Shown here: in pieces, positions 2,498-63,378 of the stretch
How positions within the stretch are numbered: the first letter of the stretch is position 1
How the letters are laid out: every line of letters starts with the position of its first letter
Source of the DNA: Acidimicrobiales bacterium
GTDB taxonomy: Bacteria; Actinomycetota; Acidimicrobiia; Acidimicrobiales; Bog-793
Direction: 5' to 3'
Assembly: GCA_035532075.1 (NCBI GenBank)
Contig: DATKRV010000003.1
Span: forward strand, 9,083 to 73,082
Length of the DNA stretch: 64,000 bases
Position numbers and translations under genes: made by a program
The notes under the pieces: generated by a model
Told to the model about the DNA's origin: nothing
Seen by the model: only the letters and a program-made list of their open reading frames with translations
The model's database searches: none

Positions 2498-3046
2498 TCA
2501 GTTGCACGAGTTTCGCTCATAGGCGATCGCGATGACGTCGAACAACAGCTCCGCTCCGACCTTGGAGGCGGGCTCGAAGTCGAGCTCGTCGAGAACCAAC
2601 AGGTCGAGTTTCGACAGCTGTGATTTCAGTCGCAAAAATGTCCGTTCGTCTCTTGTCTCGATGAGTGTCGCGACAAGCTCTGTTGCCCGAAAGAATCGCA
2701 ATTTGTAGCCACGGCTGCACGCCCCAGCGGCGAGCAAGGTCGCGAGACGGGACTTGCCGGTGCCCGATTTGGCGACGAGCGGGAAGTTCTCGCGTTGGTC
2801 GCTGAGCTCGCAGCCCTCGATCGCCACCATCGTCGGGAATCGGGCGCTTTGAGGCGTCGCTCAGCGTGCGTTTCTCGCGATCGATCAGTTCGAGCTCGCG
2901 GAGCTGTAATAGATAAGTGAGATGATCGGTGTTGTCTGCTGCTGCTTGCGCGGCCACCTTCTCTGCTTCGCGCGAATGGTCATAAGGCGCAGCGCCTTCA
3001 GGTGGTGGCGCAACAAAACGAGGGACTTGGTATCGAGGCTCTCCAT
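2498..3046 (-). pseudogene. istB: IS21 helper ATPase IstB, split over three frames and C-terminally truncated
   Basis: Three pieces lie in three frames: MESLDTKSLVLLRHHLKALRLMTIR, then EAEKVAAQAAADNTDHLTYLLQLRELELIDREKRTLSDASKRP, then ...LVAKSGTGKSRLATLLAAGA...LDLLVLDELDF...AYERNSCN*. Walker A and B motifs are present. The last part of IstB is absent. Confidence 0.75.
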
Positions 3047-4544
3047 GGTTATGTTCCTTTTTCGATGAGCGACGAGCGGCCGATAGGCGCTGAGGTCGGG
3101 CGTTTCGATAACAACCGACTTGAGGTGCGGGTGGCCATCCAGGCCGAAAAGGCCAATGGGTCGCGTTTTTTGGTGACACACGATGAGGCCAGTCGCGTCA
3201 GTGCTTATCGCCCCGATCGCAAGCGCCACTTCAACCGCTGCGGTGAGCTCGGAAAGGCTTGCTCGCTCGATCAGCCGCGGTACCTTGATGAACTCGCGCG
3301 TGCCTGCCGAACCGAGACCGGCCTCAAGGCGCCAGCGCATGAGTGCGAAGCTGGGTGGCAGCGCCAGCTGCTCGAGTGGTCGGGCGAAGTCAAGGGCGCC
3401 CGATTTTCGTTCAAGGAGTGCCAGACAGTGGCGGGGGTCATAGGTGGTGTGCTCCTTTCCCCAGTGACGGCGGTGGGCGGTGACGAGCTCGGTGCCACAA
3501 GAGAAGGCAATCTTCTCCACTCCGCCCATCACGGTCACCCCGTGATGGGCATACGCGGTTGGCACCGAGTGATCGTTGGCATCAAAGCACACGAGCGATT
3601 GCGACTTGGCCCGGCGGGCTTCGACGCGTCTTGGTTCGAATGACACTCCTGGCAGTGGACGCATCGCGTCGAGGTCTTCATTCAGGCGCTCGACCTTCGT
3701 TGTGACATTGCCCCGGGTGCGCCGATCAAGATCGGTGACACAATGTGCCTCCAGGTGGGTGTTCAACTCGCCGAAGGTGGCAAAAGACGGCCCGGGAACG
3801 GGGAAGTTCCGTCGTCCATGGTCGACGGGGTTCTTGACGTGGCCCTTCTCGTTGCCCCGCGCGACGCGACAGAATCGATGAGTGAACAGGAGGTGGCTCT
3901 CCAAGGGGAGAAACGCACGGGTGAGGCTTCGCTCGGTCGGACCGACGATCTTGGCGACCGCGATGGAGGTGTTGTCATAGACGGTCTTGGTGGGCACGCA
4001 ACCAAAGAATGAGAACGCGGCGACGTGTCTGGTCTGGAAGGTCTCGGTGCACTCGCGGAGATAGGCAGAGACAAAGAACGCATCCGAATATGGCAGCGTC
4101 ATCATCGCGAGTGCGGCCTTCACGCGCACACCATCGATCTCGACCGCTGCCTCACTGAAGTCGAACTGGGCCTCTGCTGGTGGTTGCGAGAGTGGCGCAA
4201 AGACTTCGGCGAAGGTCCGTCGATGGCTAGCGACATAACGTCGCACCGTGATCTCGCTGCCCAAATAGCTCTGATCGTCTCTCAGGCGATCGAAGATCCG
4301 CCTTGCGGTGTGACGTTGTTTTACCGGGGTTTGCCTGTCGTTCTCCAGGGATCGCATCGATGGTACCCATGAAGGGCCCGAACTTGATCGTGGGTCGCGC
4401 GATCTGCTGGCGATAGCCGGGGGATTCGGGGTGGGCGAGGATCTTATTGAGAACATCTCAGCCAAACCGGTATTCCGCTCGGACTGATCGCTTCGAGGCG
4501 ACCTCCACGAGCACCTTGTGGTGGATCTCATTCCACATTTCCAT
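3047..4544 (-). pseudogene. istA: IS21 transposase IstA, frameshifted near the N-terminus
   Basis: The ATG at 4544 gives MEMWNEIHHKVLVEVASKRSVRAEYRFG*. The sense then continues in other frames (GWDVLNKILAHPESPGYRQQIARPTIKFGPFMGTIDAI, then ENDRQTPVKQRHTARRIF...). The long 548-aa ORF (2885..4531) covers the DDE body and runs on into istB. Confidence 0.75.
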
Positions 4545-17389: not shown

Positions 17390-17522
17390 GAACGCGGCGT
17401 ACGCTATCCAGACCCCGCTCAAATCCGAAGTGCCGATTGTGTGACACACCGTCGTGCGAGGATGGGACGTCGCCACGGAGTTCTGTCGTTGCAGGCCAAA
17501 GAGTTTTGCCGTTGACCCTGTG

Positions 17523-17595
17523 TAGCCCCAACGGGATTCGAACCCGTGCCTCCACCTTGAGAGGGTGGTGTCCTAGGCCTCTAGACGATGGGGCC
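17523..17595 (-). tRNA. tRNA-Glu (anticodon CTC)
   Basis: The 73-nt reverse-strand sequence is GGCCCCATCGTCTAGAGGCCTAGGACACCACCCTCTCAAGGTGGAGGCACGGGTTCGAATCCCGTTGGGGCTA. The cloverleaf was folded by hand. The anticodon loop is CTCTCAA and the T-loop is TTCGAAT. Confidence 0.85.
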
Positions 17596-17769
17596 GTGTC
17601 GCGCATGACAAGCTTTTTCTTCCAAGCGGTTGCTCGTGATGGGCGGCTCGTCATGCTAGCGGAAGCCACGACGAAATGAACTTCTCAGCGAGATTCTGAA
17701 ATAAATCATGCCGCAAAAAGGTAATGCGTGAGGGTTCACCTGTCCCCGGAATTCTCCCACATCACACGG

Positions 17770-17841
17770 CTCGGGGGGAAGGACTCGAACCCTCAATAAC
17801 AGGTCCAGAACCTGCTGTGTTGCCGATTACACCACCCCCGA
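17770..17841 (-). tRNA. tRNA-Gln (anticodon CTG)
   Basis: The 72-nt reverse-strand sequence is TCGGGGGTGGTGTAATCGGCAACACAGCAGGTTCTGGACCTGTTATTGAGGGTTCGAGTCCTTCCCCCCGAG. The acceptor stem pairs TCGGGGG with CCCCCGA. The anticodon loop is TTCTGGA. Confidence 0.8.
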
Positions 17842-18593: not shown

Positions 18594-20015
18594 TTACCTT
18601 GTCTTTTCGGCGATCATGATTGAATGATCAAGTCGTGCGAGCACCCTTGCGCGTCCGAGTATCGCAAGCGACTCAAACAGCGGCAGGCCGACGGGAGAGC
18701 CCATCGTTGCAACTCGTATGGGCGCCTGTGTCTTTGCAAGCTTTCTATCAAATTGTTCGCCAATAGTGATCAAGATCTTCTTCAAGGATTCAGGATCGAA
18801 CGTTGCTTCCGAAAACGCCGATCGCGCCGCGCGCAGGATCTCCAGAGAACTCGAATCTTTGAGCATTGCCTTTTCAAATACGGCGGTATCAATGTCAAAA
18901 GGATCTGCAAACAGAAATTTGATGTAGTTCGGGATTTCGCCAAGAGTGGTAATCCGCTCTTGAATGAGCGGCGCGAGCGTTATGAACCGTTGCAGATCAA
19001 ATTTATCCTTGTTCCACGGAACGTCGTCACGCGAGACAAATGGCATCGCGCGTTCGACAAACTCATCGGTAGTGAGCGCACGGATATAGAGTCCGTTGAA
19101 GTGGTTGAGCCTCTTCTCGTCGAAAAATGCCGGTGATTTATTGACCTCTTCAAGTCTGAACTCCGAGATCATCTCTCCGATTGCGAGGAGCTCGCGGCCA
19201 TCATTTGGCGCCCATCCGAGTAAACAGAGATAGTTGATCATCGCCTCAGGGAGATATCCAAGATTCCGATAGTCCTCGACGGCAACCCGATCCCTCCGCT
19301 TTGAAAGCTTCTGCCGTTTTTCGTTGACGAGAACCGGGAGATGCGCAAATGCTGGCAATGGAGTGTCACTAAGGGCCTGCCAGATCAAGACTGCTTTGGG
19401 CGTCGTTGGAAGATGCTCCTCAGCGCGGATGATATGGGTTATTCCCATGTCGACATCATCCACCACAACGGCAAGCACATAAAGCGGATCGCCGTTGGAC
19501 TTGACGATGACAAAGTCCTCGATCGTTTCATTCGCAAAATCAACATCCCCGCGTACCAGATCATGCACCGTGGTTACTCCCAAATCGGGGACGCGAAAAC
19601 GCAACGCCTTTCCAGCTCCAGGTTCGAGATTCCGATCGCGACAGAAACCGTCATATCCCGGTGTCTGGCGGGTCTTGGTGCGTTCGTCTATTGCATCGCG
19701 GGGGCAGTCACAGGCGTAGGCGTGACCGTTGGCGACAAGCCGGGCTACGGCGTCGTTGTAGAGTTCGTGACGTTCAGATTGGTGGAAAAGTCCTTCATCC
19801 CATGTGATCCCGAGCCATGAAAGAGCATTGACGATCCCGTCGGTCCATTGGTCATCACTGCGTTCTCGGTCAGTGTCTTCAATGCGAAGCAGAAAGCTGC
19901 CGTTGGCCTGCCGGGCGACGAGCCAGTTGTAGAGCGCGGTTCTCGCACCGCCGACGTGAAAATACCCGGTTGGCGATGGCGCAAACCGTACGCGGACATT
20001 CGTCGTGGTCGTCAT
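18594..20015 (-). CDS. gltX: glutamate--tRNA ligase
   Basis: Contains RFAPSPTGYFHVGGARTALYNWL (HIGH region) and KLSKRR (KMSKS-like). The product is 473 aa. Confidence 0.95.
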   Translation of the reverse strand: MTTTTNVRVRFAPSPTGYFHVGGARTALYNWLVARQANGSFLLRIEDTDRERSDDQWTDGIVNALSWLGITWDEGLFHQSERHELYNDAVARLVANGHAYACDCPRDAIDERTKTRQTPGYDGFCRDRNLEPGAGKALRFRVPDLGVTTVHDLVRGDVDFANETIEDFVIVKSNGDPLYVLAVVVDDVDMGITHIIRAEEHLPTTPKAVLIWQALSDTPLPAFAHLPVLVNEKRQKLSKRRDRVAVEDYRNLGYLPEAMINYLCLLGWAPNDGRELLAIGEMISEFRLEEVNKSPAFFDEKRLNHFNGLYIRALTTDEFVERAMPFVSRDDVPWNKDKFDLQRFITLAPLIQERITTLGEIPNYIKFLFADPFDIDTAVFEKAMLKDSSSLEILRAARSAFSEATFDPESLKKILITIGEQFDRKLAKTQAPIRVATMGSPVGLPLFESLAILGRARVLARLDHSIMIAEKTR

Positions 20016-50391: not shown

Positions 50392-51798
50392 GTGCCCCAC
50401 GTGACGAAAGAACTTGATCTCGGAAAGTACTCGCTCGGTTGGAGCGACGAAGAGGACTATGTCTTCAAGCCCCGCAAGGGCCTCAACGAGGAGATCGTCC
50501 GGGAGATGTCAAGGATCAAAGGCGAGCCAGAATGGATGCTGAAGTTCCGTCTCAGCGCCTACCGGCGTTTTCGCGAGAAGCCGATGCTTGACTGGTTCGC
50601 GACAAAGATGCCTGGACTTGATTTCGAGGACATCTACTACTACATCAAGCCAACCGCCGGTCTTGTCGACGCGTGGGAGGAACTCCCCGAGTCCGTGAAG
50701 AACACCTACGAGAAGCTCGGCATTCCCGAAGCCGAACGGAAGTACCTGGCCGGTGTGACCGCGCAGTACGAGTCAGAGGTGGTCTATCACCGCAACCGCG
50801 AGGATCTCGAAAAACTCGGTGTGTTGTTCAGTGACATGGACACTGCGGTGCGCGAGTACCCGGAGATCGTCCGCAAGTGGTTCGGCAAGATCATTCCGCC
50901 GAACGACAACAAGTTCGCAGCACTCAACTCGGCCGTGTGGTCGGGCGGCTCGTTCATCTACATCCCGCCTGGCGTCAAGGTCGACATGCCCCTGCAGGCG
51001 TATTTCCGGATCAATGCAGAGAACATGGGACAGTTCGAGCGCACGCTGATCATTGCCGATGAGGGCTCGCAGGTGCACTATGTCGAGGGTTGCTCGGCTC
51101 CGGTCTATTCGACCGACTCGCTGCACTCCGCAGTCGTCGAGCTCGTCGCTCTGCCGGGCAGCAGGATCACCTATACGACGATCCAGAACTGGTCGAACAA
51201 CGTCTATAACCTCGTGACCAAGCGTGCACGTGCAGAGACAGAGGCACACGTCGAATGGATCGACGGCAACATCGGGTCGCGTCTCACGATGAAGTATCCC
51301 TCGGTCTACCTGATGGGACCAAAGGCCTCCGGCGAGGTGCTCTCGGTTGCCTATGCGGGCGCCGGTCAGATCCAAGACACCGGAGCGAAGATGGTGCACT
51401 TTGCACCGGAGACGACATCGACGATCATCTCGAAGTCGATCTCCAAAGATGGCGGAATCACCACCTATCGCGGCAAGGTCCATGTGGATGAGGGCGCCAA
51501 GGGTGCGAAGTCCTTCGTGCGCTGTGATGCGCTCATTCTCGATGAGGAATCGACCTCAGAGACCAAGCCCTACATGGAGGTCGAAGAGCGGGACGCGCAG
51601 ATCGGGCATGAGGCGACGGTGTCAAAGGTCGGGGACGATCAGCTCTTCTATCTGATGAGCCGTGGGCTCTCCGAGACGCAGGCGACCTCGATGATCGTGA
51701 ACGGCTTCATCGAGCCGATCACAAGGACACTGCCGATGGAATATGCGGTCGAGTGGAGCCGACTGATCGAGCTGCAGATGGAAGGGTCGGTAGGCTGA
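50392..51798 (+). CDS. sufB: Fe-S cluster assembly protein SufB
   Basis: Contains ...[13 protein letters not shown]..., [23 protein letters not shown] and the SufB C-terminal beta-helix. The GTG at 50401 is an alternative start. Confidence 0.93.
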
Positions 51799-51847
51799 GA
51801 ACCTGCCTTTGACGTTACGTCAGCAGCACCGAGGAGGTCCGGCTCAC

Positions 51848-52216
51848 ATGCCGATGCGCGAGGAATGCAAGAACTATCAATCGAGGACGTATGCGAACGG
51901 CGAAGTAGCCCGTCTCTGCATCCTTGGTCTCGCTCCCGAGGCACCCTGGCGCTGTCCTGAGAACTGTCCGTCCTATGTCCGTCGTCTGGCGGACGCGGGC
52001 TGGACGCATGGAAGCCTGATCGAACCACCGATTGAAGACGAACCCGAGGGAGCAAATGTCGCTGAACTGCTCGACAATGCAGAGGACATCGTGAACGCGG
52101 TCGTCGCGTCAACGCGCGAAGAGGTACTCGCCGCCCGCGATGAACGAGAGGGCGACTCATTCGGCCGCGGTCTGCGTCGATTATTTCGCAAGAACAATCC
52201 AAAGAGAGATCAATGA
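51848..52216 (+). CDS. small Cys4 protein of unknown function inserted between sufB and sufD
   Basis: The product reads MPMREECKNYQSRTYANGEVARLCILGLAPEAPWRCPENCPSYV..., followed by an acidic/basic tail. GAGGAGG lies 10 nt upstream. Its stop overlaps the sufD ATG (ATGA). Confidence 0.5.
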   Translation: MPMREECKNYQSRTYANGEVARLCILGLAPEAPWRCPENCPSYVRRLADAGWTHGSLIEPPIEDEPEGANVAELLDNAEDIVNAVVASTREEVLAARDEREGDSFGRGLRRLFRKNNPKRDQ

Positions 52217-53523
52217 ACCTTTCGGACCGAAGATTTTCCGCCGAGTCCCTCGAGGCACTCGGAGGTTCAGAATGGGTCGCGCGCTATCGAGCATCGGCAC
52301 TCGCCCGACTGAGCGAAGTCCATGAGGCGACGTCGACGGCCGAGGACTGGCGTTATGGCCGTATCGACGAGCTCGATCTCTCGAGTTATGGCGTGGTCTT
52401 GCCACGTATCCATGAGGCAATTCCGATTAGCTCGGCGTCGCGCGCGTTTCTCGATGACTTTGGAGACCATGGGGCGCTCGTGCATGTGATCGACGGGGTG
52501 CTCGTCTCGGTCGAACTTCGCGATGAGATCAAGCACTCCGGTATCACGATCGGTTCGATCGCGGACTTTGACCTGCCGATCGAGGAGTTCGGTTCGCTGC
52601 TCAGTCTTGTCGACGAGCCGTTCGGAGTACTCAATGACGCCTTTGCGCCAGCGGCGACGGTGATCGATGTCCCCGCGAACTCGGCATTCGAGCCTCCGAT
52701 CGTGGTGATATCAGAGCTTTCGGAGGCCGCGGTCGAGGGACTCTCCTACGCGCGTCTGTTCATCCGTCTTGGTGTCTTCGCACAGGCCTCCGTTGTGGTC
52801 TTTCAGACCTCTCTCGATGGAAGACTCCTTCATGTTCCGGTGGTTGAGACCTTTGTCGGAGAGTCGGCCCATCTGCGCCTCGACCTCGTCCAGCAACTCG
52901 CCGAGCGATCGTGGCTGCTCGGTTACCAGCTTGCAGAGATCGGGCGCGATGCAACGCTGAGCGCGTTCTCGGCATCGCTCGGTGCGGACTACTCGCGTCT
53001 CTACTCCAGGGCCGCGCTTGCCGGTGAGGGCGGCGAGAGCCGTCTCTTTGCCGCCTACCTTGGAATTGCAACCCAGGTTCAAGAGTTCCGCACCTTCCAG
53101 GATCATCTCGTCGGTCGGACCAAGAGCGAACTGATCTTCAAAGGAGCGGTCGCGGACCACGCACGTTCGGTGTATTCGGGCATGATCCACATGCGAAAGG
53201 GAGCTCGGCGCGCGGATGCCTCCCAGACGAACCGGAATCTCGTACTGAGCGAGGGCGCACATGCCGATTCGGTTCCCAATCTCGATATCGACGAGAACGA
53301 CGTGCACTGCAGCCACGCCTCAGCGGTGGGACCAATCGATCCAGATCAGCTCTTCTATCTCGAATCGCGCGGAATTCCCCCGGAGGTCGCGGAACGACTC
53401 ATCCTGCTTGGCTTTTTCGATGATCTGTTGTCCAGGGCGAACAATGCGGGATGCGCAACCTATATCCGTAAAGATGTCGAGCTCCGGCTCGCGGATTCGA
53501 TCTATGCGCAGCTCGCATCATGA
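52213..53523 (+). CDS. sufD: Fe-S cluster assembly protein SufD
   Basis: The product is 436 aa. It contains ...QTNRNLVLSEGAHADSVPNLDIDENDVHCSHASAVGPIDPDQLFYLESRGI.... Confidence 0.9.
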   Translation: MNLSDRRFSAESLEALGGSEWVARYRASALARLSEVHEATSTAEDWRYGRIDELDLSSYGVVLPRIHEAIPISSASRAFLDDFGDHGALVHVIDGVLVSVELRDEIKHSGITIGSIADFDLPIEEFGSLLSLVDEPFGVLNDAFAPAATVIDVPANSAFEPPIVVISELSEAAVEGLSYARLFIRLGVFAQASVVVFQTSLDGRLLHVPVVETFVGESAHLRLDLVQQLAERSWLLGYQLAEIGRDATLSAFSASLGADYSRLYSRAALAGEGGESRLFAAYLGIATQVQEFRTFQDHLVGRTKSELIFKGAVADHARSVYSGMIHMRKGARRADASQTNRNLVLSEGAHADSVPNLDIDENDVHCSHASAVGPIDPDQLFYLESRGIPPEVAERLILLGFFDDLLSRANNAGCATYIRKDVELRLADSIYAQLAS

Positions 53524-53843
53524 GTGAGGTTGGATTCGTGGATCTGTGTGGTGCCGAAGAGATGGCACTCGGGGAGGCGAGAAGGTTCATGCTCGAGGTT
53601 GGGCCGGTCTGTCTGGTCCGGTGCAACGGGGGGTTCCGCGCGATCCTCGATGTCTGTAGCCATGAGGACTTTCCGCTCTCCGAAGGAGAGGTCGAACTCG
53701 AAGAGTGCCTGATTGAATGCTGGAAGCACGGCAGTATGTTCTCGCTCGATACCGGTGAGCCGATGTCGTTCCCTGCCACACAGCCCGTTCCGGTCTATGC
53801 GGTCCTGATCGAAAACGGACGGGTGTTGGTGAAGGCCCAGTGA
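53520..53843 (+). CDS. Rieske [2Fe-2S] domain protein (suf-associated)
   Basis: It has the CxH and CxxH pairs VCSHED and ECWKHGSMF. Its start and stop overlap the neighbouring genes by 4 nt each. Confidence 0.8.
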   Translation: MSEVGFVDLCGAEEMALGEARRFMLEVGPVCLVRCNGGFRAILDVCSHEDFPLSEGEVELEECLIECWKHGSMFSLDTGEPMSFPATQPVPVYAVLIENGRVLVKAQ

Positions 53844-54625
53844 GTACGCTTCGTATCGCTGGACTTCGTGCCGCAATCGGTTCGAAAGAGGTCCTCAGGG
53901 GAATCGACCTCGAGATCTGCTCGGGTGAGATCCACGCGATCATGGGGCCAAACGGCGCTGGCAAGTCCTCGCTCGCCAATGTCCTGATGGGCAATCGCGC
54001 CTATCTGGTGACGGAGGGATCCGTCACCCTCGACGGGGTCGATCTGCTTTCGCTGAGCACCTATGAGCGCGCCGGTGCCGGGCTGTTCCTTGCCTCGCAG
54101 AGTCCGATGGAGATTCCCGGTGTCCCCCTCCTTTCGCTGTTGCGAGAGGCGCTGCTCGCCCAGGGACGCGCCGACGAGGCCGAGGAGGAGTCATTGCTCG
54201 CGCGCCTTGACAAAGAGGCGCTCTCGATCGGTGTACCCGAGGCGATGCTCGGGCGCGCGGTCAATGTCGATGCCTCAGGTGGTGAGAAGAAGCGACTCGA
54301 GACCCTCCAGCTCGCGATCCTCCAGCCACGGATCGCGCTCTTGGACGAACTCGACTCGGGCCTCGATGTCGATGCACTGCGCGATGTCGCGCGTCGCATC
54401 GAACGACAGGCACACGCACCTGAACCCGGAACGATTGCCATCGGGGTCCTCGCGATCACGCACTATCGCCGCCTGCTCGACGAGCTCCATCCTGATGGGG
54501 TGCATGTCTATGTGAACGGCAGGATCGTCAAGTCGGGCGGTCTTGAGCTCGCAGATGAACTTGAACGCGATGGTTACGCTGCCTACACCGAGGATGAGCC
54601 GGTCTCCGATTTCATCTTCCCATAG
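53840..54625 (+). CDS. sufC: Fe-S cluster assembly ATPase SufC
   Basis: Contains GPNGAGKSSL (Walker A), SGGEKKR (ABC signature) and LLDELDSGLD (Walker B). Confidence 0.95.
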   Translation: MSTLRIAGLRAAIGSKEVLRGIDLEICSGEIHAIMGPNGAGKSSLANVLMGNRAYLVTEGSVTLDGVDLLSLSTYERAGAGLFLASQSPMEIPGVPLLSLLREALLAQGRADEAEEESLLARLDKEALSIGVPEAMLGRAVNVDASGGEKKRLETLQLAILQPRIALLDELDSGLDVDALRDVARRIERQAHAPEPGTIAIGVLAITHYRRLLDELHPDGVHVYVNGRIVKSGGLELADELERDGYAAYTEDEPVSDFIFP

Positions 54626-54650: not shown

Positions 54651-55058
54651 GTGATGATGCATCTCTTAGCGCCGGATCCGAACGCGCACCTTGGCACGCT
54701 GCTCAGCTTCCATCAGGTGTGGGGCTATCTCGTCATCACCGGGAACGGTCTCGCCGGGCTCTGGGCCCTCGTTGCCAACTATCGCGAGAAACTTCGTACG
54801 AGAGCACTCTGGTGGTTTACCTTCTTCGTCGAGGCGGCGATATTTGTCCAGATTGGCTCCGGACTTGGTCTTGTCGAGGGCGAACACGCGAGGCCGCTCG
54901 CGTTCCATCCGTTCTACGGGTTCTTCGCCGTCGTCGTCGTCGGGTTCCTCTTTGCCTACCGACGGCAGCTGTTCGCGCGTCGCTACCTGCTCTATGGATA
55001 CGGCGGTTTGTTTTTGATGGGCATCGGAATCCGCGCGCTCATCACTGCGCACGCCTGA
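54651..55058 (+). CDS. hypothetical membrane protein (about 4 TM helices)
   Basis: This is a 135-aa hydrophobic ORF (VWGYLVITGNGLAGLWALVANY..., WWFTFFVEAAIFVQIGSGLGLV...). No family was recognised. Confidence 0.45.
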   Translation: MMMHLLAPDPNAHLGTLLSFHQVWGYLVITGNGLAGLWALVANYREKLRTRALWWFTFFVEAAIFVQIGSGLGLVEGEHARPLAFHPFYGFFAVVVVGFLFAYRRQLFARRYLLYGYGGLFLMGIGIRALITAHA

Positions 55059-55424: not shown

Positions 55425-56408
55425 ATGCGTGGAGGTCGCGTCTTGAGTCAGACACAGCTGGCAGCGCCTGTCATCCAGGCTTTGCAGGATCTCACGATCC
55501 TGTTCGGTGCCCCGTTGGTGAGCGGTGTCATCGCGCATGTCGAAGGTCGCATTCAAGGCCGTCGTGGTCCGCGAGTCTTTCAACCCTACTACGACCTAGC
55601 AAAACTCTTTCGCAAAGAGACTGTCGTCCCCGAAGGATCGAGTTGGGTCTTCCTCGTCGGACCTATCATCGCGTTCTCCTGCTATCTCATCGTCCCGCTT
55701 CTCATCCCGGTGCTCACAACCTATGGACTGCCCCTCGGCTACATGGGCGACATCTTGGGAGGTGGCTTCATCCTCGCCCTCGCCGGGTTCTCGGTCGCGA
55801 TCGCCGGCACGGAGTCAGGTGCTCCGTACGCACAGCTTGGGGCCAGCCGGGCGATGACCTTCGGCGCGCTCATCGAGCCGACGATCCTCTTCGTCGTCTT
55901 TGCCGTTGGGATCATCACAGCAACCGACCTTCCCTATGCGCTCGCTGCGACCGTGCGTTCCTCGACGGGCGAGATTGTCCGCCCGGCGCACATTCTCGCG
56001 GCGATCGCTTTCTTTCTTGTGGTACTCGCCGATACCGGCAGGATCCCGGTCGAGACGCACTCGGGAACCTTGGAGTTCGGAATGATCGATGAGGGTCGGA
56101 CCCTCGAGCACTCGGGCGCGCCGTTCGCATTGCTCAGGTGGGGATCGACGATGAAGCAGCTGATCCTCTACACGATCCTCATCGATGTCTTCGTCGCGCC
56201 GTGGGGCCTTGCCACAGATCGGCGACCAGCTTCAGTCGTCCTTGCCATTCCATCTCTTCTCGGGAAGGCCATGGTTGTCGGCTGCATATTCGCGATTATC
56301 GACAACTCCTTCTCGAAGTTGCGTCTGTTCAAGATCACCGAGTTCCTCGCCGCGGCGTTCCTTCTTGCCGTACTCGCCGTACTCGTCTTCTACCTGGGGG
56401 GTGGCTGA
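55425..56408 (+). CDS. NuoH/HycD/HyfC-like membrane subunit
   Basis: Contains VEGRIQGRRGPRVFQPYYDLAKLFRKE and multiple TM helices. The product is 327 aa. Confidence 0.85.
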   Translation: MRGGRVLSQTQLAAPVIQALQDLTILFGAPLVSGVIAHVEGRIQGRRGPRVFQPYYDLAKLFRKETVVPEGSSWVFLVGPIIAFSCYLIVPLLIPVLTTYGLPLGYMGDILGGGFILALAGFSVAIAGTESGAPYAQLGASRAMTFGALIEPTILFVVFAVGIITATDLPYALAATVRSSTGEIVRPAHILAAIAFFLVVLADTGRIPVETHSGTLEFGMIDEGRTLEHSGAPFALLRWGSTMKQLILYTILIDVFVAPWGLATDRRPASVVLAIPSLLGKAMVVGCIFAIIDNSFSKLRLFKITEFLAAAFLLAVLAVLVFYLGGG

Positions 56409-57076
56409 TGCCGCACGCCGCACCTTCCACCTTCACGGGTGCCGTAGACGTCATCGCCGTGCTCGTCTTGCTGACGGAGTTCGCGATGCTGCGCGCCCCG
56501 ATGCTGCGTTCACAGGTACGCCTCTACGCGTTCCAGTCACTCGTTGTTACCGCGCTCGCAATCGTCGTCGCGGCGACCCGTCACATCGACGAGATCTATG
56601 TCCTCGCGGCGCTGTCGTTCATCTTGAAGGTCATCATCGTGCCGCGAATCGTGCTCCGTCTGCTTTCGCGCGCCGAGGTCAGTCTCGCCGGCAGCTCGGC
56701 CTTCAGCGTCGCCACGATGACATTGATCGCGATCGTGATGTCGGTCTTCGCGTTCTTCTCGGTCGGCGCACTGCACCTGCAGTCCACAGCGCTCCCATCG
56801 GCGGCTCTCGCGATCTCCGTCGCGGTGGTGCTCGTCGCGTTCGTGCTCATCATCTTGCGTTCCGACGTCGTCTCCCAGGCGATCGGATTCTTCTCGCTCG
56901 AGAACGGTGTCTCAGTCGCAAGCCTTGTCGTGGCCTCCGGGCTCCCCCTTATCGTCGATGTCGCGTTCCTGTTCGATCTCCTCGTCGCGGTCGTCGTCTT
57001 CGGCGTGTTGATGCGGATCCACCACGGCCGCACGAAAACACTGTCCACTGACTCGCTCGATCGGCTGAAGGGCTAG
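56408..57076 (+). CDS. HyfE-like (NuoK-related) membrane subunit
   Basis: The ATG overlaps the upstream TGA (TGATG). The 222-aa hydrophobic product has AIGFFSLENGVSVASL, typical of hydrogenase-4 component E. Confidence 0.78.
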   Translation: MPHAAPSTFTGAVDVIAVLVLLTEFAMLRAPMLRSQVRLYAFQSLVVTALAIVVAATRHIDEIYVLAALSFILKVIIVPRIVLRLLSRAEVSLAGSSAFSVATMTLIAIVMSVFAFFSVGALHLQSTALPSAALAISVAVVLVAFVLIILRSDVVSQAIGFFSLENGVSVASLVVASGLPLIVDVAFLFDLLVAVVVFGVLMRIHHGRTKTLSTDSLDRLKG

Positions 57077-57080
57077 CGCG

Positions 57081-58553
57081 ATGAACCACGTGCTGCTTGC
57101 CATCGTGATTGTTCCCGTCGTCACGTCGATCGCCACCTGGTGGACCCCTCCAGCGATCTCGAAGGTAGTCACGATCGGTTCGGGGATCGCACTGTTCCTC
57201 CTCGCGCTGGCCCTCATTCCGAGTGCGACCGCTCACAGCTACCTCGCTGTTGGGTCGGTGCTTCGGGTCGATGCGCTCTCAGTCGTCTTCCTGGTGCCGA
57301 CAACGTTTCTCTACGCGACGACATCGATTTTCGCGGCGGGCTACCTCCACCTTCCAGAGGGCGAGGCTGGACGGCGCTATGCGCGACGTTTTTTCGTGGG
57401 ACTTAACGTCTTCTGCTGGTCGATGGCCGTCGCACCGCTCGTGAATGGGTTGGCGCTGTTGTGGGTGATGATCGAGGTGACGACCGTCATCTCTGCGCTG
57501 TTAGTCGCGATTGACGATACCGACGGTGCGACCGAGGCGGCTTGGAAGTACGTCATCCTCGCGTCGCTCGGGCTTGGCATCGCGCTCTTCGCGACGATCA
57601 TCATGTACTACGCGGGAACCCGCTTCTTCGGTTCCTCTTACGACCCCTCCTACAACAAGCTCCTCTCGGGCGCACACGCCTTCCCGAAGGACGTCGTCCG
57701 GCTCGCGGACGTGCTCGCGGTACTTGGCTTTGGAACGAAGATGGGGCTCGTCCCGGTCCACACGTGGCTACCCGATGCACATTCCGAGGCGCCGACACCG
57801 ATCTCAGCACTGCTATCGGGGGCGCTGCTCGCGACAAGCTTTTATGCCATCCTTCGTTTCTTCCAGGTGAGTGTGCGTTGCCTCGGGCCGGCCTTTCCGA
57901 GGAACGTGCTGTTGATCTTCGGACTCGCTTCACTCGTTCTAGCTGCGTTTTACCTGCTCAGCCAACGCGACCTGAAGCGATTGCTTGCCTATTCGAGCGT
58001 CGAGCACATGGGGATCCTCGCGATCGGGATGAGCTTTTCCGCTCCGCTTGCGATCGTCGGCGTGCTGCTGCACGTCATCGCGCACGGCGCGGCGAAGGGC
58101 ACGGCGTTCTTCGGGGCGGGCTCGGTCGCCCGCAAGTTCAAGTCGAAGGACATGGCTCGAATACGCGGCGGTGTGGGACTGTTGCCCTGGAGCGGCCCAA
58201 TGCTCGTCCTCGCGGTGCTCGCCCTCTCCGCGATGCCGCCGTTTGGGATCTTCCGGAGCGAATTCCTCATCGTCGCCGGCGGGCTCTCGGATCCACGCGA
58301 TGCCATCGCCGCAGTGCTCGTCGTGTTCGTCACCGTTGCGTTTTTTGGCCTGTCGTGGTTCACGACGAAGACGATGCTCTCTCCCGTGCCCGAGCGGGAG
58401 AGGCTGCGACTCGGACGCGGCGAGACGAGCTGGCTCATCGTCGTCGCGATGGCGGTCGGACTCGTCGGACTCGTCATTCTCGGCGTTCACGTGCCCGGAC
58501 AGCTGAACGAACTCCTCCAGCACGCCGCGAGCCAGCTCGAGGTGGCGCGATGA
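57081..58553 (+). CDS. NuoN/NuoM/HyfF-like antiporter-type subunit
   Basis: The 490-aa product contains GLVPVHTWLPDAHSEAPTPISALLSGALL and LAYSSVEHMG. Confidence 0.85.
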   Translation: MNHVLLAIVIVPVVTSIATWWTPPAISKVVTIGSGIALFLLALALIPSATAHSYLAVGSVLRVDALSVVFLVPTTFLYATTSIFAAGYLHLPEGEAGRRYARRFFVGLNVFCWSMAVAPLVNGLALLWVMIEVTTVISALLVAIDDTDGATEAAWKYVILASLGLGIALFATIIMYYAGTRFFGSSYDPSYNKLLSGAHAFPKDVVRLADVLAVLGFGTKMGLVPVHTWLPDAHSEAPTPISALLSGALLATSFYAILRFFQVSVRCLGPAFPRNVLLIFGLASLVLAAFYLLSQRDLKRLLAYSSVEHMGILAIGMSFSAPLAIVGVLLHVIAHGAAKGTAFFGAGSVARKFKSKDMARIRGGVGLLPWSGPMLVLAVLALSAMPPFGIFRSEFLIVAGGLSDPRDAIAAVLVVFVTVAFFGLSWFTTKTMLSPVPERERLRLGRGETSWLIVVAMAVGLVGLVILGVHVPGQLNELLQHAASQLEVAR

Positions 58554-60052
58554 CTATGGATGGGGCCGCGGTCGAGGTGAGGCCCGAGCTGTTCGCGACC
58601 GAGGTGGCAGGCATACTGGGCAGCACACACCGACTCGCCGCGCTGTTCGCGATGCCACAGGCGCGTTGCGTCCGTCTCGTTGCCGTCCTCGCCGGACAGG
58701 GGCGGCTTATGGTGATTGCGGCAACACTTGCCGAGGGGACGACCTCGTATCCGTCGGTCACCGCGCTCGTGCCCGGTGCCGACTGGTATGAACGGGAGAT
58801 CCACGATCTCTATGGGATCGAGGCGATCGGCCATCCGGACCTCGATCCGCTCGTTCTCCCTCTCTCACCCGGCTCGATCCGGCCGCGACCGGGATCGGGT
58901 GACCAGGTCGATCGACTCGTGCCCGACAGTGCACCGCTGCCAGCACTTGTGAGCGGCGAGGGCATGTTCACGATTTCCTATGGACCCGTGAGGTCGGGGG
59001 TCTTCGAGGCGATCGAGTACGTCATCGAGACTCCGGGGGAGGACTTCCCCCGTATCCAGACGCGTCCGCACTACAAGCACCGCGGGGTCGAGTTCGGCTT
59101 TGTCGGCCGAAGCGTCGAGGATGGTGTCTTGCTCGCCGAGAGGGTCGAGGGCGTCGCGACGATCGCGCATGCCACCGCGTATTGCGAGGCGATCGAACGC
59201 ATCTCGGGAGCCGAACCTCCACCCGCTGGTCAATTCGTCCGGGTTCTCCACGCGGAACTCGAGCGCATCGCCAATCACCTCGATTCGACGATCCGCCACA
59301 CGGAGGCGGCTGGGCAGGCAGTCGCCTTCGCGCGGCTCACGCTCCACAAGGAGCGCCTCATGCGACTCCGGGCAAAGCTGTGCGGCAATCGTTTCGGTCG
59401 TTGCGTCGTCGTTCCCGGCGGCGTCTGCGGAGCACCGTTGATCGAAGGGGTCGAGATCCTCGCCTCGGTCGACCACCTCGAGCGAGATATCCGTGCCGAT
59501 CTGAAGCTGTTGATGGCAACGCCGTCATTCCTCGACCGTTTGCGCGACACCGGGATACTGCCACCTTCGATCCTCGCGGTTCGCGGGGCCCTCGGTCCGC
59601 TCGCGCGTGGCTCTGGCATCGAAGAGGACGTGCGACGCTCACGACCCTACGGCGGTTACCGGAATCTCGGCTTTAGCTCGGCAAGCGGCGTGGAGGGTGA
59701 CGCGCTTGCCCGCCAACTCGTCCGCAATGACGAGATCTGGGGGAGTTTCCACCTCATTCGCCAGGCACTTGACGAGCTGGACCACCTGGCAGGGGTCGCG
59801 TGGTCTGCTCCCATGAGGACAGTGGCAACGGGGACATTGAGCGGAGAGGCGTTCGGGTGGGCGGAGGCGCCGCAGGGGGAGGTTCTCTATCTTGTACGCG
59901 TCGAGGACGGAGTGCTCACCCGGGTGAAACAACGTTCCGCCTCGTTTCACAACCTGGCGCTGTTCACCGCGGCCTTCCCGAAGGACATCACCACCGACTT
60001 TGCCTTCATCGAAGCGAGCTTCGGACTTTCGATTGCGGGAGCGGCCGGCTGA
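58550..60052 (+). CDS. NuoC-NuoD / HycE / HyfG-like large subunit lacking the [NiFe] cysteine ligands
   Basis: The start has an ATGA overlap with the upstream gene. The NuoC-like part reads ADWYEREIHDLYGI. The NuoD/large-subunit part reads ISYGPVRSGVFEAIEYVIETPGEDFPRIQTRPHYKHRGVE. The L1 position reads RVEGVATIAH and the C-terminus reads FIEASFGLSIAGAAG. Confidence 0.85.
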   Translation: MTMDGAAVEVRPELFATEVAGILGSTHRLAALFAMPQARCVRLVAVLAGQGRLMVIAATLAEGTTSYPSVTALVPGADWYEREIHDLYGIEAIGHPDLDPLVLPLSPGSIRPRPGSGDQVDRLVPDSAPLPALVSGEGMFTISYGPVRSGVFEAIEYVIETPGEDFPRIQTRPHYKHRGVEFGFVGRSVEDGVLLAERVEGVATIAHATAYCEAIERISGAEPPPAGQFVRVLHAELERIANHLDSTIRHTEAAGQAVAFARLTLHKERLMRLRAKLCGNRFGRCVVVPGGVCGAPLIEGVEILASVDHLERDIRADLKLLMATPSFLDRLRDTGILPPSILAVRGALGPLARGSGIEEDVRRSRPYGGYRNLGFSSASGVEGDALARQLVRNDEIWGSFHLIRQALDELDHLAGVAWSAPMRTVATGTLSGEAFGWAEAPQGEVLYLVRVEDGVLTRVKQRSASFHNLALFTAAFPKDITTDFAFIEASFGLSIAGAAG

Positions 60053-60870
60053 TGCCGTGGATGACGCGGGGTATCCGCGAGGGAATCGTCACGAGCCGAT
60101 ATCCACATCGGCCAGACGGATACGGACCGCTCTTTCGAGCCACCGTGTCGGTGTCTGGCGGCGAAGACGTCGCGCGGCTCGACGCACCTGAGGCAGTAGC
60201 CGTCGCGCAGCTGTGCCCGACCGGCGCAATCAAAACAGAGGGAGGGATCCGGGTGGACCGCGGCCTTTGCGTCGCCTGCGGTCGTTGTGTCGCGGCTCGA
60301 CCGGAGATGTTTTCCTTTGATGCCGATTTCGAGGTTGCCGCACTCCGTCGGGATCTGCTTGTCGTCTCGCGTCACGAGGAGGGGCAAAACGATCTCGCTG
60401 AACTGCGCGAGGGACTCGCGAGACGCGTCCGCGCGCTTCGCCGTTCGATCCATATCCGACACATCGACTGCGGTTCCGATGGATCTGAGGAGTGGGAGAT
60501 CGCGGCGCTCACCAATCCCTTCTACGACGTGCAGCGCCTTGGGATCTTCTTCACCGCGAGCCCTCGTCATGCTGATCTCCTTCTCGTCACGGGGGCCGGA
60601 GCGACCGGGATGCTCGGCGCACTCCATCGCACCTTTGACGCGATGCCGACGCCGAAACTGATCATCGCCATCGGGAGCGAGACGGCGAGCGGCGGTCTGC
60701 TTGCGCGGAGCTACGCCACGCGAGGTGGTATTGCCGATGATATCTCCGTCGATGTCTTCGTTCCGGGTTCGCCGCCGAGTCCCTTCGCGATTTTGCACGG
60801 AATTTTGCTCGCGATCGGTCTTATGCCCGTCCGTGGCAGCGATGCGACCCAAGCTGAGAGGTCATCGTGA
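60052..60870 (+). CDS. fusion of a NuoI/HyfH-like ferredoxin domain and a NuoB/HycG/HyfI-like small-subunit domain, most Fe-S ligands missing
   Basis: The start has a TGATG overlap with the upstream gene. The N-domain reads ...QLCPTGAI...CVACGRCVAARPE. The C-domain reads IDCGSDGSEEWEIAALTNPFYDVQRLGIFFTASPRHADLLLVTG...IAIGSETASGG...VFVPGSPPSP. Confidence 0.8.
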   Translation: MPWMTRGIREGIVTSRYPHRPDGYGPLFRATVSVSGGEDVARLDAPEAVAVAQLCPTGAIKTEGGIRVDRGLCVACGRCVAARPEMFSFDADFEVAALRRDLLVVSRHEEGQNDLAELREGLARRVRALRRSIHIRHIDCGSDGSEEWEIAALTNPFYDVQRLGIFFTASPRHADLLLVTGAGATGMLGALHRTFDAMPTPKLIIAIGSETASGGLLARSYATRGGIADDISVDVFVPGSPPSPFAILHGILLAIGLMPVRGSDATQAERSS

Positions 60871-62891
60871 ACGCGGCGCTCCTCGTCGCGGCTTTTGGCT
60901 GTTTTTGCGCGGGTGCGCTCGCGGACATCGTCCTTGTGAGTGCCAATCGCGCCCTTCGTCCGCTGCCGTACGGACTCGCGTTCGTCGGATCGGGACTGTG
61001 TCTTGCGGTTGGCATTCACGTCATCGCGGATGGAGCGCAGATGTACTCGCTCGGATCCCTGCTCGGCATTGGGACGACGACGGTCCGCCTCGACGATCTG
61101 GCGGGACTGTTCCTCACCCTGTTATTCGCGATCGGGGTCGCGGTGTCGGCATGTTCGATTACTTGGATCCGACGGGAAGAGAGTCCGCGTCGGCGTGGTC
61201 TCGGGGCGGCTTATTGCACGCTGCTTGCTTCGGTCGCGGCGATCCTTCTCGCCGCGGACGCGTTCACGTTCCTGTTTTCCTGGGAGATGCTCACCCTCTC
61301 GTTCTACGTGCTTGCCGGAGTGAACCGGGCCAACCGGCGCGAGGCACACGCGGCATGGCTGACGCTCGTCACCGGCAAGGTGAGCGGCGCGTGCCTCCTC
61401 TTTGGCTTTCTGCTCCTCGTCGGTCGAAGTGGGAGCTTTCTGCTCAGCGCCTGGCACGGTGTGGCGCCCGGGACGGTGCATGACATCGCCTACGCGCTGA
61501 TCGTCGTTGGCTTATCGACCAAGCTCGGCGTTGTGCCGTTGCAGGCGTGGATGCCGGTCGGCTACTCGGCAGCGCCTGGACCGACACGTGCCGCGATGGC
61601 GGGCATCGCGGCGAACGTCGGCGTCTATGGCCTGTGGCGCATCCTGTCGATCCTTGGACGCCCTCCGGTCTGGCTCGCCATCGCCGTGCTGTTGACCGGT
61701 GGCATCACCGCGCTGTTGGGCATTGCGTTCGCGGGAGTGCAACAGCGCCTATCGCGCGTTATCGCCTACTCGAGCATCGAGAACGCCGGCATCATCATTA
61801 CCGCCTTCGGTGTCGCGCTCGCCGGCGCGGTCACTTCGAACGCGACGCTCGAGGCGGCGGGACTGCTCGCGGCGAGTCTCCACGCTGTCGCGCACGCGAT
61901 CTCGAAGTCCGTGCTGTTTGCCGCTTCGGCGAACGTCGCGCAGGCGGTCGGGAGCGACGATCTTGAACGACTTCGCGGGATCGGGCGCTCCCTTCCCCTA
62001 TCGGGATGGACCTTTGGCGCGGGTGCATTGACGCTCGCCGGTCTGCCCCCGACGGTCGGATTCGTCTCCGAGTGGTTCGTCCTCGAAGCCCTGATGCAAC
62101 AGTTTCGCCTGCCGGGCCTCGCACTTCGTCTCGCGATGGCTGGTGCAGGCGCGCTCATCGCACTCACCTCCGGACTCGCGGCACTCGCCTTTGTGCGGAT
62201 CCTTGGCCTCGTCTTTCTTGGACCTCCGATGCCCGAGGTCGACCGTCGTTCGGAGAGAGGATTCTTCGGTCGTGCTGGCCTCGTCTCCCTCGGCACGAGC
62301 TGTTTCGCGCTCGCCGCGATCTCCCCACTTGAGATCCGTTTCCTTGCTCGCGGACTATCGCCAGTGGTCTCAAAGACTCTGGTCGAGCATGCACTCAAGT
62401 CGCCGTGGGTTCTCCAGCCGACCTATGCCGGATTCTCGATCCTTTCGCCCTCATGGCTCTCCGTCGTGATGCCAATCCTCTTCGCAGTGGTAACGGTCGC
62501 GGCCGTCGCGGTCTCTCGCGGACGCTATTTCAAGATTCGTCGTGCCCCGGCCTGGCACTCTGCGACCTCTGGAGTGCACGGTCCGTCGAACTACACCGCG
62601 TTCGGTTTCGCGAATCCGCTCCGTCATGTGCTCGCGAACATTCTTGGCACGCGGCGAGAGGCGATACTCCTCGAAACCGTTGCGGACAATACGAGAGGTC
62701 GGGGACGCGTCGAGTACACGACGAGCATCGTCGAGCCAGTCGAGGCCTACCTCTATCGACCGATCCGGATCGGAGCGCTGGCACTCGCGCGGCTTGTAAA
62801 ATCTCTCCAGTCTGGACGTCTCGAAGCATACGTTGCCTACATGCTCTTCGCGCTTGTAGTCGCGCTCGCGGTCACCGCGGGACTTCGATGA
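60867..62891 (+). CDS. NuoL/HyfB-like antiporter-type subunit
   Basis: The start has a GTGA overlap with the upstream gene. The 674-aa product contains FLFSWEMLTLSFYVL and VPLQAWMPVGYSAAPGPTRAAMAGI. Confidence 0.85.
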   Translation: MNAALLVAAFGCFCAGALADIVLVSANRALRPLPYGLAFVGSGLCLAVGIHVIADGAQMYSLGSLLGIGTTTVRLDDLAGLFLTLLFAIGVAVSACSITWIRREESPRRRGLGAAYCTLLASVAAILLAADAFTFLFSWEMLTLSFYVLAGVNRANRREAHAAWLTLVTGKVSGACLLFGFLLLVGRSGSFLLSAWHGVAPGTVHDIAYALIVVGLSTKLGVVPLQAWMPVGYSAAPGPTRAAMAGIAANVGVYGLWRILSILGRPPVWLAIAVLLTGGITALLGIAFAGVQQRLSRVIAYSSIENAGIIITAFGVALAGAVTSNATLEAAGLLAASLHAVAHAISKSVLFAASANVAQAVGSDDLERLRGIGRSLPLSGWTFGAGALTLAGLPPTVGFVSEWFVLEALMQQFRLPGLALRLAMAGAGALIALTSGLAALAFVRILGLVFLGPPMPEVDRRSERGFFGRAGLVSLGTSCFALAAISPLEIRFLARGLSPVVSKTLVEHALKSPWVLQPTYAGFSILSPSWLSVVMPILFAVVTVAAVAVSRGRYFKIRRAPAWHSATSGVHGPSNYTAFGFANPLRHVLANILGTRREAILLETVADNTRGRGRVEYTTSIVEPVEAYLYRPIRIGALALARLVKSLQSGRLEAYVAYMLFALVVALAVTAGLR

Positions 62892-62907: not shown

Positions 62908-63378
62908 ATGACGACGAGACACGATCTGCTGCTCGGAGGTCGATTGCGGCGCCTCCTCGTCTGTTTCGGCGGGTTGCCAGAATCCATGAAGGCGATCGAG
63001 CTCTTGCTCGATCTCGGCAAGGCGCTCGGTGCCCAACTGACGATCTTCAGTGTCCTCGCCGGAGCTGCACACCTTGAGTCCACTGAAGTGCAACATGCCG
63101 CAGAGCACACCGCGCGTGAACATCTCGGTGCGCAGCTCACCGGTATTCTGCGCTGCGCCGCGGACTCCGGTGTGCAATTTCGCGAAGTGAATGTCATCGG
63201 TGGCGATCCTGGCGAGGAGATCACTCGGTACGCGACCGAGCATGGATTCGACCTTGTGGTCATCGGAAGTCACGGGCAATATCGCGTCGCCCACGGCGGT
63301 CTCGGTCGAGTCGTCGAGCGGCTGCTGCGACGTTCGAAGTGCCCGGTGCTCGTCGCTCCCGCTCGCGCGGACCGCTAG
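62908..63378 (+). CDS. universal stress protein (UspA family)
   Basis: Contains HGFDLVVIGSHGQYRVAHGGLGRVVERLLRRSKCPVLVAP. Confidence 0.8.
   Translation: MTTRHDLLLGGRLRRLLVCFGGLPESMKAIELLLDLGKALGAQLTIFSVLAGAAHLESTEVQHAAEHTAREHLGAQLTGILRCAADSGVQFREVNVIGGDPGEEITRYATEHGFDLVVIGSHGQYRVAHGGLGRVVERLLRRSKCPVLVAPARADR

Follow-up and report, generated by a model that had tools for sequence, protein, structure and literature searches.

The energy-converting hydrogenase-related (Ehr) class comprises complexes related to group 4 hydrogenases in which the large subunit is missing the CxxC motifs that bind the Ni-Fe center (PMC4378227, PMC10284858, PMC6349859). The class goes back to Coppi 2005 and Marreiros 2013 (cited in PMC4378227, PMC10284858, PMC6349859 and PMC7304191), and the hosts named in the literature are Geobacter, Sulfobacillus, Nitrospira (close to group 4f), bacteria of the Candidate Phyla Radiation (CPR), Margulisbacteria and ammonia-oxidizing archaea. 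Ehr complexes have been viewed as coupling cytoplasmic redox reactions to charge translocation (PMC6349859), and the Ehr subunits of Geobacter increase on formate (PMC7894505). The current study examined a 64,000-nucleotide stretch of DNA from an Acidimicrobiales bacterium (assembly GCA_035532075.1, contig DATKRV010000003.1, positions 9,083 to 73,082; hereafter the window), in which the open reading frame (ORF) at 58550-60052 encodes a large subunit of this type. A search of the literature found no publication tying Acidimicrobiia to hydrogenase-related complexes or to Ehr. The large subunit belongs to the Ehr class as already described and is not a new kind of protein; the new part is the small subunit encoded next to it, which has lost its proximal [4Fe-4S] cluster and represents a derived variant within the known class. 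The complex may possibly operate as an Mrp-like cation or proton translocator, a reading that is weighed below against its alternatives.

The large subunit and its former metal site

The large-subunit gene (58550..60052; this and all other features lie on the + strand unless marked otherwise) is the fourth gene of a six-gene operon and encodes 500 amino acids in a stop-free reading frame. The protein is a NuoC-NuoD fusion of the HycE-like (EhrL) type, with the Pfam domains Complex1_30kDa (NuoC-type), the N-terminus of NiFeSe_Hases, and Complex1_49kDa; its NCBIfam matches are NuoD, NuoCD and FpoD, each under its family cut-off. Compared with the sequences of solved structures using HMMER, it matched Pyrococcus furiosus MbhL (7e-38), Escherichia coli HycE (3e-33) and Thermus thermophilus Nqo4 (2e-29). 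An AlphaFold model (pLDDT 80, pTM 0.85) found its best structural match in E. coli HycE (7z0s_E, TM-score 0.87, E 1e-30, Foldseek), and the NuoD/HycE-type fold is thus retained. Confidence in the model is low at residues 136-171 and 474-500, the segments bearing the beta1-beta2 loop and the remnant of the C-terminal metal-binding motif.

The N-terminal [NiFe] motif (L1, RxCGxCxxxH) is represented by R198-V-E200-G201-V-A203-T-I-A-H207 (59141..59170). In the HMMER alignments, RVEGVATIAH pairs with RMCGICSFSH of MbhL, RVCGICGFAH of HycE and RMDYLHSFAH of Nqo4, and the columns are identical when the protein is aligned by MAFFT to E. coli HycE and HyfG in a set that also includes E. coli NuoCD and 113 representative homologues. 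By these alignments, the L1 motif of group 4 large subunits is lost, with Glu (E200) at the first Cys and Ala (A203) at the second. The C-terminal motif (L2, CxxC) corresponds to S494-I-A-G497 (60029..60040), the columns of HycE C531 and C534. The nearest Cys-bearing relatives, which end in NKSFEL-C-Yx-C-xDR, line up with the EASFGL-S-IA-G-AAG-stop of the window protein and thereby fix the register; since AlphaFold confidence is low at 474-500, this C-terminal assignment rests on alignment rather than on structure. As aligned, the L2 motif is likewise lost, with Ser (S494) at the third Cys, Gly (G497) at the fourth, G492-L493 in place of the DP dipeptide, and no C-terminal extension. A preliminary description of this DNA, made by hand alignment, had identified a [NiFe] large-subunit homologue with all four ligand cysteines substituted and without a NuoD-like tail. 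Each of these points is borne out: the MAFFT columns of the four cysteines hold E200, A203, S494 and G497 at the coordinates then proposed, alignment to HycE, MbhL and Nqo4 places no cysteine at L1, nor does alignment to HycE at L2, and the DR C-terminus of NuoD is absent. Ehr large subunits cannot bind Ni-Fe and therefore cannot act as hydrogenases; judged from its sequence, hydrogenase chemistry is excluded for the window protein because the Ni-Fe ligands are absent.

Other features of the active site have changed as well. The conserved Arg of the PRG motif shared by hydrogenases and NuoD is replaced by Q442 (59873..59875) in the HMMER alignments, where EAPQGE stands opposite EAPRGE in MbhL, EAPRGD in HycE and ESARGE in Nqo4. 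Counted among 81 sequences, namely the window and its best 80 related loci, Gln occupies this position in 78. The preliminary description had also suggested inspecting the pocket for an alternative ligand or quinone cavity, and a quinone cavity found no support: the quinone head-group ligands of complex I, Nqo4 His38 and Tyr87, correspond to F152 (79/81) and G201 (81/81), and a complex-I-type quinone site was ruled out because these positions hold Phe and Gly. The proton-path residue E153 is kept, as is H207 (77/81).

The substituted positions are themselves conserved. E200, G201 and G497 are found in all 81 sequences, S494 in 76 and A203 in 71, and E200, S494 and G497 are invariant among 40 aligned orthologues, in which the fold signatures GPVRSG..E, YKHRG and ELERIANHL are also invariant or almost so. 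All 80 related loci, which derive from metagenome-assembled genomes (MAGs) of Acidimicrobiales or Actinomycetota, carry an uninterrupted large-subunit ORF with at least 459 residues covered, and 167 GTDB species genomes encode a relative. The ratio of nonsynonymous to synonymous substitution rates (dN/dS) was taken from close ortholog pairs (dS 0.06-0.65), because the dS of pairs involving the window (0.6-2.3) is near or past saturation. These unsaturated pairs gave a dN/dS of 0.11-0.33 in the large subunit and 0.12-0.31 in the small one, with the membrane subunits at 0.04-0.28 (0.04-0.10 for the HyfC-, HyfE- and HyfF-like subunits, 0.22-0.28 for the HyfB-like subunit). The large-subunit gene is maintained, as the preliminary description had argued from its preserved fold signatures, and is under purifying selection: the frames are intact, and the substitutions are conserved rather than random. 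One MAG (SMAG_U15028) contributes two loci, L012 and L021, whose Ehr large subunits are 80% identical; these could be two operon copies or the product of a mixed bin.

Among the matches listed from 5.8 billion proteins (at least 120), identity to the large subunit ranged from 57 to 100%, mostly in Acidimicrobiales MAGs, and the only names given were "Ni,Fe-hydrogenase III large subunit", "formate hydrogenlyase subunit 5" and "NADH-quinone oxidoreductase subunit C". Ehr genes are routinely mis-annotated under the first two of these names, and genes of this type should be left out of hydrogenase counts in metagenomic surveys of H2 metabolism. One relative comes from a cultured organism, Aciditerrimonas ferrireducens, whose protein (WP_248105975.1) belongs to the same "E-A-S-G" clade as the window; a metagenome locus encoding the representative of its 90% cluster shows the same operon.

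The assignment to Ehr follows from group 4 homology with the Ni-Fe cysteines missing, and from an operon that encodes NuoH-like, HyfE-like, NuoB-like and two Mrp/NuoL-type subunits among its six coupled genes. In a rough neighbor-joining tree of 106 sequences, which has neither bootstrap values nor labelled 4f references, the window falls inside a Cys-less radiation beside the Cys-bearing NKSFEL-CYxCxDR relatives, as part of a terminal clade whose first Cys position is Glu. Ehr complexes descend from membrane-bound [NiFe] hydrogenases of group 4 (4f-like).

The small subunit and the membrane arm

The small-subunit gene (60052..60870) encodes 272 amino acids, comprising a HycF/NuoI-like ferredoxin domain (Pfam Fer4_13/Fer4_15) followed by a NuoB/HycG-like domain (Oxidored_q6), and matches HycG (7z0s_G, 2e-27) and MbhJ (2e-26) by HMMER. 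Alignment to MbhJ and HycG places D143 and E146 (60478..60489) where the proximal [4Fe-4S] cluster has its CxxC ligands, with GSDGSEEWE opposite GSCNGCDIE of MbhJ and GGCNGCEIE of HycG. HMMER and an alignment of 77 small subunits place E210 (60679..60681) at the third ligand, the Cys of the GAC motif, and S240 (60769..60771) at the fourth, where GCPP has become GSPP. Across the 77 sequences, the first of these columns is always Asp, the second is Glu or Asp in 74, the third is Asp in 70 and Glu in 7, and the fourth is Ser in 73. The columns of the cluster N2 cysteines of E. coli NuoB hold Ser or Ala, Glu or Asp, Asp or Glu, and Ser in this family, so that N2 also lacks its ligands. As aligned, all four proximal-cluster cysteines of the group 4 small subunit (HycG, MbhJ, NuoB) are missing, replaced by D143, E146, E210 and S240.

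The ferredoxin domain has undergone a partial loss of its own. Its N-terminus, MPWMTRGIREGIVTSRYP, resembles MFTFIKKVIKTGTATSSYP of HycF in a comparison by eye, which shows that a 2x[4Fe-4S] ferredoxin's first CxxCxxC and last CP are gone. The only invariant cysteines of the domain, present in 77 of 77 small subunits, are C55 (as CP) and C73-x2-C76-x2-C79 (60214..60288), the sole complete Fe-S ligand set of the protein. Under the ligation rule of 2x[4Fe-4S] ferredoxins, these four residues make up the full ligand set for a single cluster, leaving no ligand for the second; the surviving set would correspond to N6b of Nqo9, the cluster adjoining N2. In the search for representative sequences, one 630-residue protein (P0124) runs straight from large-subunit into small-subunit sequence, and may be a natural fusion or a frameshifted gene call.

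Sampled Ehr of other subclades have kept more of their clusters. In locus L085, whose large subunit has the pattern S/S/S/G, the 2x[4Fe-4S] protein is encoded by a gene of its own and NuoB retains every Cys, and L092 (S/D/A/G) and L091 (S/S/S/E) have fused small subunits in which the proximal cluster is kept; the three thus carry the proximal cluster and one or two ferredoxin clusters. Among the sampled Ehr, a small subunit without the proximal cluster was found only in the clade of the window and its sister clade (L086-L089, L093), and the loss is derived because L085, L091 and L092 keep that cluster. Having given up both the proximal and one ferredoxin-type cluster, the small subunit is more informative than the large subunit.

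The other four structural genes encode membrane subunits. The operon begins with a HyfC/HycD/NuoH-like subunit of 327 amino acids (55425..56408; Pfam NADHdh, E 2.7e-36), followed by a HyfE-like subunit of 222 amino acids (56408..57076; NCBIfam "hydrogenase 4 membrane subunit", E 1.2e-27) and a HyfF-like antiporter-type subunit of 490 amino acids (57081..58553; Proton_antipo_M E 2.9e-48, HyfF E 6e-105). After the large and small subunits, it closes with a HyfB-like (NuoL-type) antiporter-type subunit of 674 amino acids (60867..62891; HyfB E 9.5e-121). The six genes at 55425-62891 are translationally coupled through TGATG, ATGA and GTGA start/stop overlaps; for example, the HyfE-like start overlaps the HyfC-like stop (TGATG), and the HyfB-like start overlaps the stop of the small-subunit gene. 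The C-E-F-L-S-B order is kept in the 80 related loci as far as the contigs reach.

The residues associated with ion translocation are conserved throughout this arm. Both antiporter-like subunits keep the Glu of transmembrane helix (TM) 5, the Lys of TM7, the central-axis His and Lys, and the Glu of TM12. In the HyfF-like subunit, E132, K220, H335, K339 and E394 occupy the columns of NuoL E144/K229/H338/K342/K399 and are invariant in 70 orthologues, and in the HyfB-like subunit E140, K219, H343, K347 and E402 are invariant in 68. Of the 15 charged positions that NuoH, HyfC and HycD have in common, the NuoH-like subunit, the best conserved of all (69-94% identity across related loci), retains 11; R37, E216 and E218 (NuoH numbering) are altered. 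The ENG and FDLLVA motifs of the HyfE-like subunit are conserved. By residue conservation, the membrane arm is predicted to be competent for pumping.

Candidate working modes of the complex

In the lineage of the window, the peripheral arm has lost the Ni-Fe site, the proximal cluster, one HycF-type cluster, the PRG Arg and the quinone ligands. Complex-I-type quinone reduction is unlikely because both the N2 ligands and the Tyr/His pair are absent. From these losses we infer that pumping may no longer be coupled to redox chemistry at the former active site. The complex could instead work as a secondary, Mrp-like cation or proton translocator, its four membrane subunits keeping their ion-translocation residues and the former catalytic module serving as a cytoplasmic cap or sensor. 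Translocation of this kind, redox-independent or gated by a sensor, is a tentative proposal to which we would give somewhat less than an even chance. Gating might be achieved by the carboxylates E200, D143, E146 and E210, if these sense pH or a cation, or by the one [4Fe-4S] cluster still present, if it senses redox state, and the co-transcribed universal stress protein (Usp) would be a likely regulator. A more specific version, in which redox chemistry at the coupling site has been shed, the four carboxylates drive or gate the machine as a pH- or cation-sensing cluster, and the leftover [4Fe-4S] cluster senses redox state or oxygen, is unlikely. If it were true, the complex would be a natural experiment indicating that the conformational relay from the NuoB/D/H-like module to the antiporters can be triggered by non-redox changes of charge.

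Several considerations weigh against an Mrp-like translocator. The searched literature contains no experiment on, or structure of, any Ehr complex, and function is for this reason read from what was lost. Electron transfer could still matter, given the strictly conserved [4Fe-4S] ligand set (77/77), and a partner donating electrons could be encoded elsewhere in the genome. The conserved Asp/Glu/Glu/Ser set, together with E200, could bind a different metal instead of sensing pH or cations. Mrp antiporters work without a NuoB/D/H-like module, yet the module here is under purifying selection, and the altered loop glutamates E216 and E218 of the NuoH-like subunit may change the coupling path. It is also possible that the founding paper, Marreiros 2013, already describes Ehr small subunits without clusters, which would bear on the novelty of this variant.

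There are several potential alternatives to such a translocator. The complex could have remained an energy-converting oxidoreductase, in which ferredoxin or an unlinked dehydrogenase delivers electrons to the remaining [4Fe-4S] cluster for the reduction of quinone, a sulfur compound or another substrate bound near the old active site, thereby driving ion pumping in the way usually supposed for Ehr complexes. The invariance of the four cysteines of this cluster in all 77 small subunits and a membrane arm that appears fully pump-competent agree with such a reaction, as do the published link between Ehr and redox-coupled charge translocation (PMC6349859) and the rise of Geobacter Ehr subunits on formate (PMC7894505). 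However, in hydrogenases, complex I and MBS the catalytic pocket is served by the proximal cluster, which here has no Cys ligands; the ligands of the second ferredoxin cluster (the first CxxCxxC and the last CP, by eye versus HycF) are gone; the complex I quinone ligands and the PRG Arg are both absent; and no donor module (FdhA, NuoEF, HycB) was found in the operon or its conserved flanks. On balance, a retained oxidoreductase is somewhat unlikely. It is also conceivable, though quite improbable, that E200, S494, D143, E146, E210 and S240 form a new hard-ligand site for Fe, Mn, Mg, Zn or Ca, at which another reaction, possibly non-redox (for example hydration or hydrolysis), is coupled to ion translocation. 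DabAB and the CupA subunit of cyanobacterial NDH-1 are precedents for redox-independent chemistry coupled to NuoL-type subunits, the replacements are non-random (D143 in 77/77, E200 in 81/81, and Asp or Glu always or almost always at positions 146 and 210), and the proton-path residue E153 and H207 are retained. Convergence of these carboxylates and serines in space is presumed, however, and no recognizable catalytic motif was found using Pfam and NCBIfam. Moreover, the acidic set is not universal, because the sister subclade L088 reads D, A, P and E at the same positions.

The stepwise loss of several cofactor sites, together with a constraint on the large and small subunits that is 2-3 times weaker than on the HyfC-, HyfE- and HyfF-like subunits, could also be expected of a decaying relic, that is, a hydrogenase operon without function on its way to becoming a pseudogene. 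The intact large-subunit ORF in 80 of 80 loci, with six genes wherever the contigs reach, argues against this, as do a dN/dS far below 1 in every gene, the preserved translational coupling, the invariance of the substituted positions themselves, and the presence of the family in 167 species genomes. The pseudogene reading was rejected on the basis of the intact ORFs, the dN/dS values and the conserved substituted positions, and its probability is negligible.

Ehr complexes have been described as a "missing link" that connects hydrogenases with complex I, and they are widespread, including in relatives of Cyanobacteria. The Acidimicrobiales subclade narrows the options for what they do: the Ni-Fe site, the proximal cluster and the quinone ligands are gone while the ion-translocating arm is conserved, which argues that at least some Ehr complexes are not oxidoreductases. 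Since a member of this clade is carried by the cultured Aciditerrimonas ferrireducens, it could offer a simple system for learning what drives or gates a complex-I-type membrane arm.

Genomic setting and comparison with known systems

The Usp gene (62908..63378; Pfam Usp, E 1.8e-25) lies 16 nt 3' of the HyfB-like gene and is likely an accessory or regulatory gene. A Usp homologue occupies the equivalent position in 32 of 66 related loci, and a gene for a Usp-CBS fusion follows the distant Ehr operon of L085 (11139-12971); the recurrence of Usp or Usp-CBS genes suggests a conserved regulatory link to the Ehr operon. Partner genes were sought with Pfam on 38 ORFs of the window and by clustering the 5-kb flanks of the 80 related loci. 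The annotated window ORFs include no FdhA, FdhF, NuoEF, HycB or hyp gene, and none recurs in the flanks conserved among the 80 loci, nor was any Hyp maturation or endopeptidase gene found among the annotated ORFs of the 64-kb window. The genes that do recur in the flanks encode Usp, a dynamin-like GTPase, DegV and CrcB/DUF190. In approximately 19 of the 80 loci (e.g., L093, 15044-16850), genes for CrcB (a fluoride channel) and DUF190 are no more than about 1.5 kb from the Ehr operon, and a DegV gene is frequently immediately 3' of the operon in Acidimicrobiales loci. The gene for the dynamin-like GTPase (about 570-590 amino acids) is near the operon in 13 of the 80 loci (e.g., L038) and is also found beside the distant operon of L085 (815-2578).

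Directly 5' of the operon in the window is a suf Fe-S assembly cluster (50392-54625) composed of SufB, SufD, a Rieske-type ORF (53520-53843) and SufC; no suf cluster was found to flank the operon in any of the 80 related loci, in which up to about 5 kb upstream of it was covered. Between sufC and the operon is an ORF for a predicted membrane protein of 135 amino acids (54651-55058), with no Pfam match and no homologue in the related loci. A scan for promoters and terminators between 54.5 and 64 kb returned a number of sites not above that of shuffled sequence, and an Rfam scan of the whole window found two tRNAs and no other RNA. These are tRNA-Glu(CTC) (17522-17595, -) and tRNA-Gln(CTG) (17768-17841, -), which adjoin a class I Glu/Gln tRNA synthetase gene (18594-20015, -). 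Further away, an ORF with a Mu-transposase C-terminal domain (2885-4531, -) lies near a dip in GC content (6-8 kb) and several genes for methyltransferases and glycosyltransferases, and the region around it may be mobile or variable.

With the described Ehr complexes, namely EhrA-S of Geobacter sulfurreducens (GSU0739-45) and the Ehr of Sulfobacillus, Nitrospira, CPR bacteria and Margulisbacteria, the window may share a position near group 4f, and its operon has the same six-gene content as described for Sulfobacillus. It differs from other Ehr in its HycF-NuoB fusion small subunit, which has no proximal-cluster Cys and only one ferredoxin-type cluster, and in the invariant Glu at the first Cys of L1, where Ser or Ala is common in other Ehr. 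The formate hydrogenlyase and hydrogenase-4 of E. coli share the NuoC-NuoD-fused large subunit, with HycE (7z0s_E) as the best fold match, as well as the HycF-like N-terminus of the small subunit (by eye). HyfB, HyfE and HyfF are the top-scoring families for the membrane subunits, and the first gene is of the NuoH type, like HyfC and HycD. In contrast to the HycE/HycG system, the window has neither the Ni-Fe ligands, nor the C-terminal extension processed by HycI, nor the proximal cluster, and no HycB/FdhF partner or hyp genes lie near its operon.

The Q-module of complex I (NuoD/Nqo4, NuoB/Nqo6 and NuoH) is homologous to the window complex in fold and subunits. Both carry an acidic residue at the first hydrogenase Cys (E200 in the window, D86 in Nqo4 and Glu in E. 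coli NuoCD), and both have the same Lys, Glu and His in their antiporter-like subunits. Unlike complex I, the window has Gly for Tyr87 and Phe for His38, no N2 ligands, and no DR at the C-terminus, and its operon is without NuoA, NuoJ and NuoEFG. The likeness to Mrp antiporters consists of two MrpA/MrpD-type subunits with the TM5 Glu, TM7 Lys and TM12 Glu and a NuoK/MrpC-like HyfE subunit, and otherwise concerns only the proposed non-redox working mode. The window operon is not an Mrp operon: it includes NuoB/NuoD/NuoH-like subunits, it does not have the seven-gene mrpA-G set, and no MrpE, MrpF or MrpG matches were found in it using Pfam and NCBIfam.

A further parallel is provided by the MBS/MBX complex of P. 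furiosus (PDB 6u8y), which is likewise hydrogenase-derived, has given up H2 chemistry and has kept an Mrp-like membrane arm; its MbsL and MbsJ are detectable homologues of the window large and small subunits (3.5e-19 and 5e-12, HMMER). In MBS all three [4Fe-4S] clusters are retained, and the proximal one is where polysulfide is reduced. MBS-type reduction of sulfane or sulfur was rejected for the window because its proximal cluster has no ligands in the small subunit, which offers one complete Cys set compared to a chain of three clusters. Lastly, we take the Rv0081-Rv0087 cluster of Mycobacterium tuberculosis to have the same six structural gene types as the window, presumably in a permuted order (small subunit, HyfB, HycD, HycP, HycQ, HycE). 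This "hyc" cluster has been described as a set of actinobacterial hyc-family genes that are homologous to EHR complexes and do not form a functional hydrogenase (PMC6728331).

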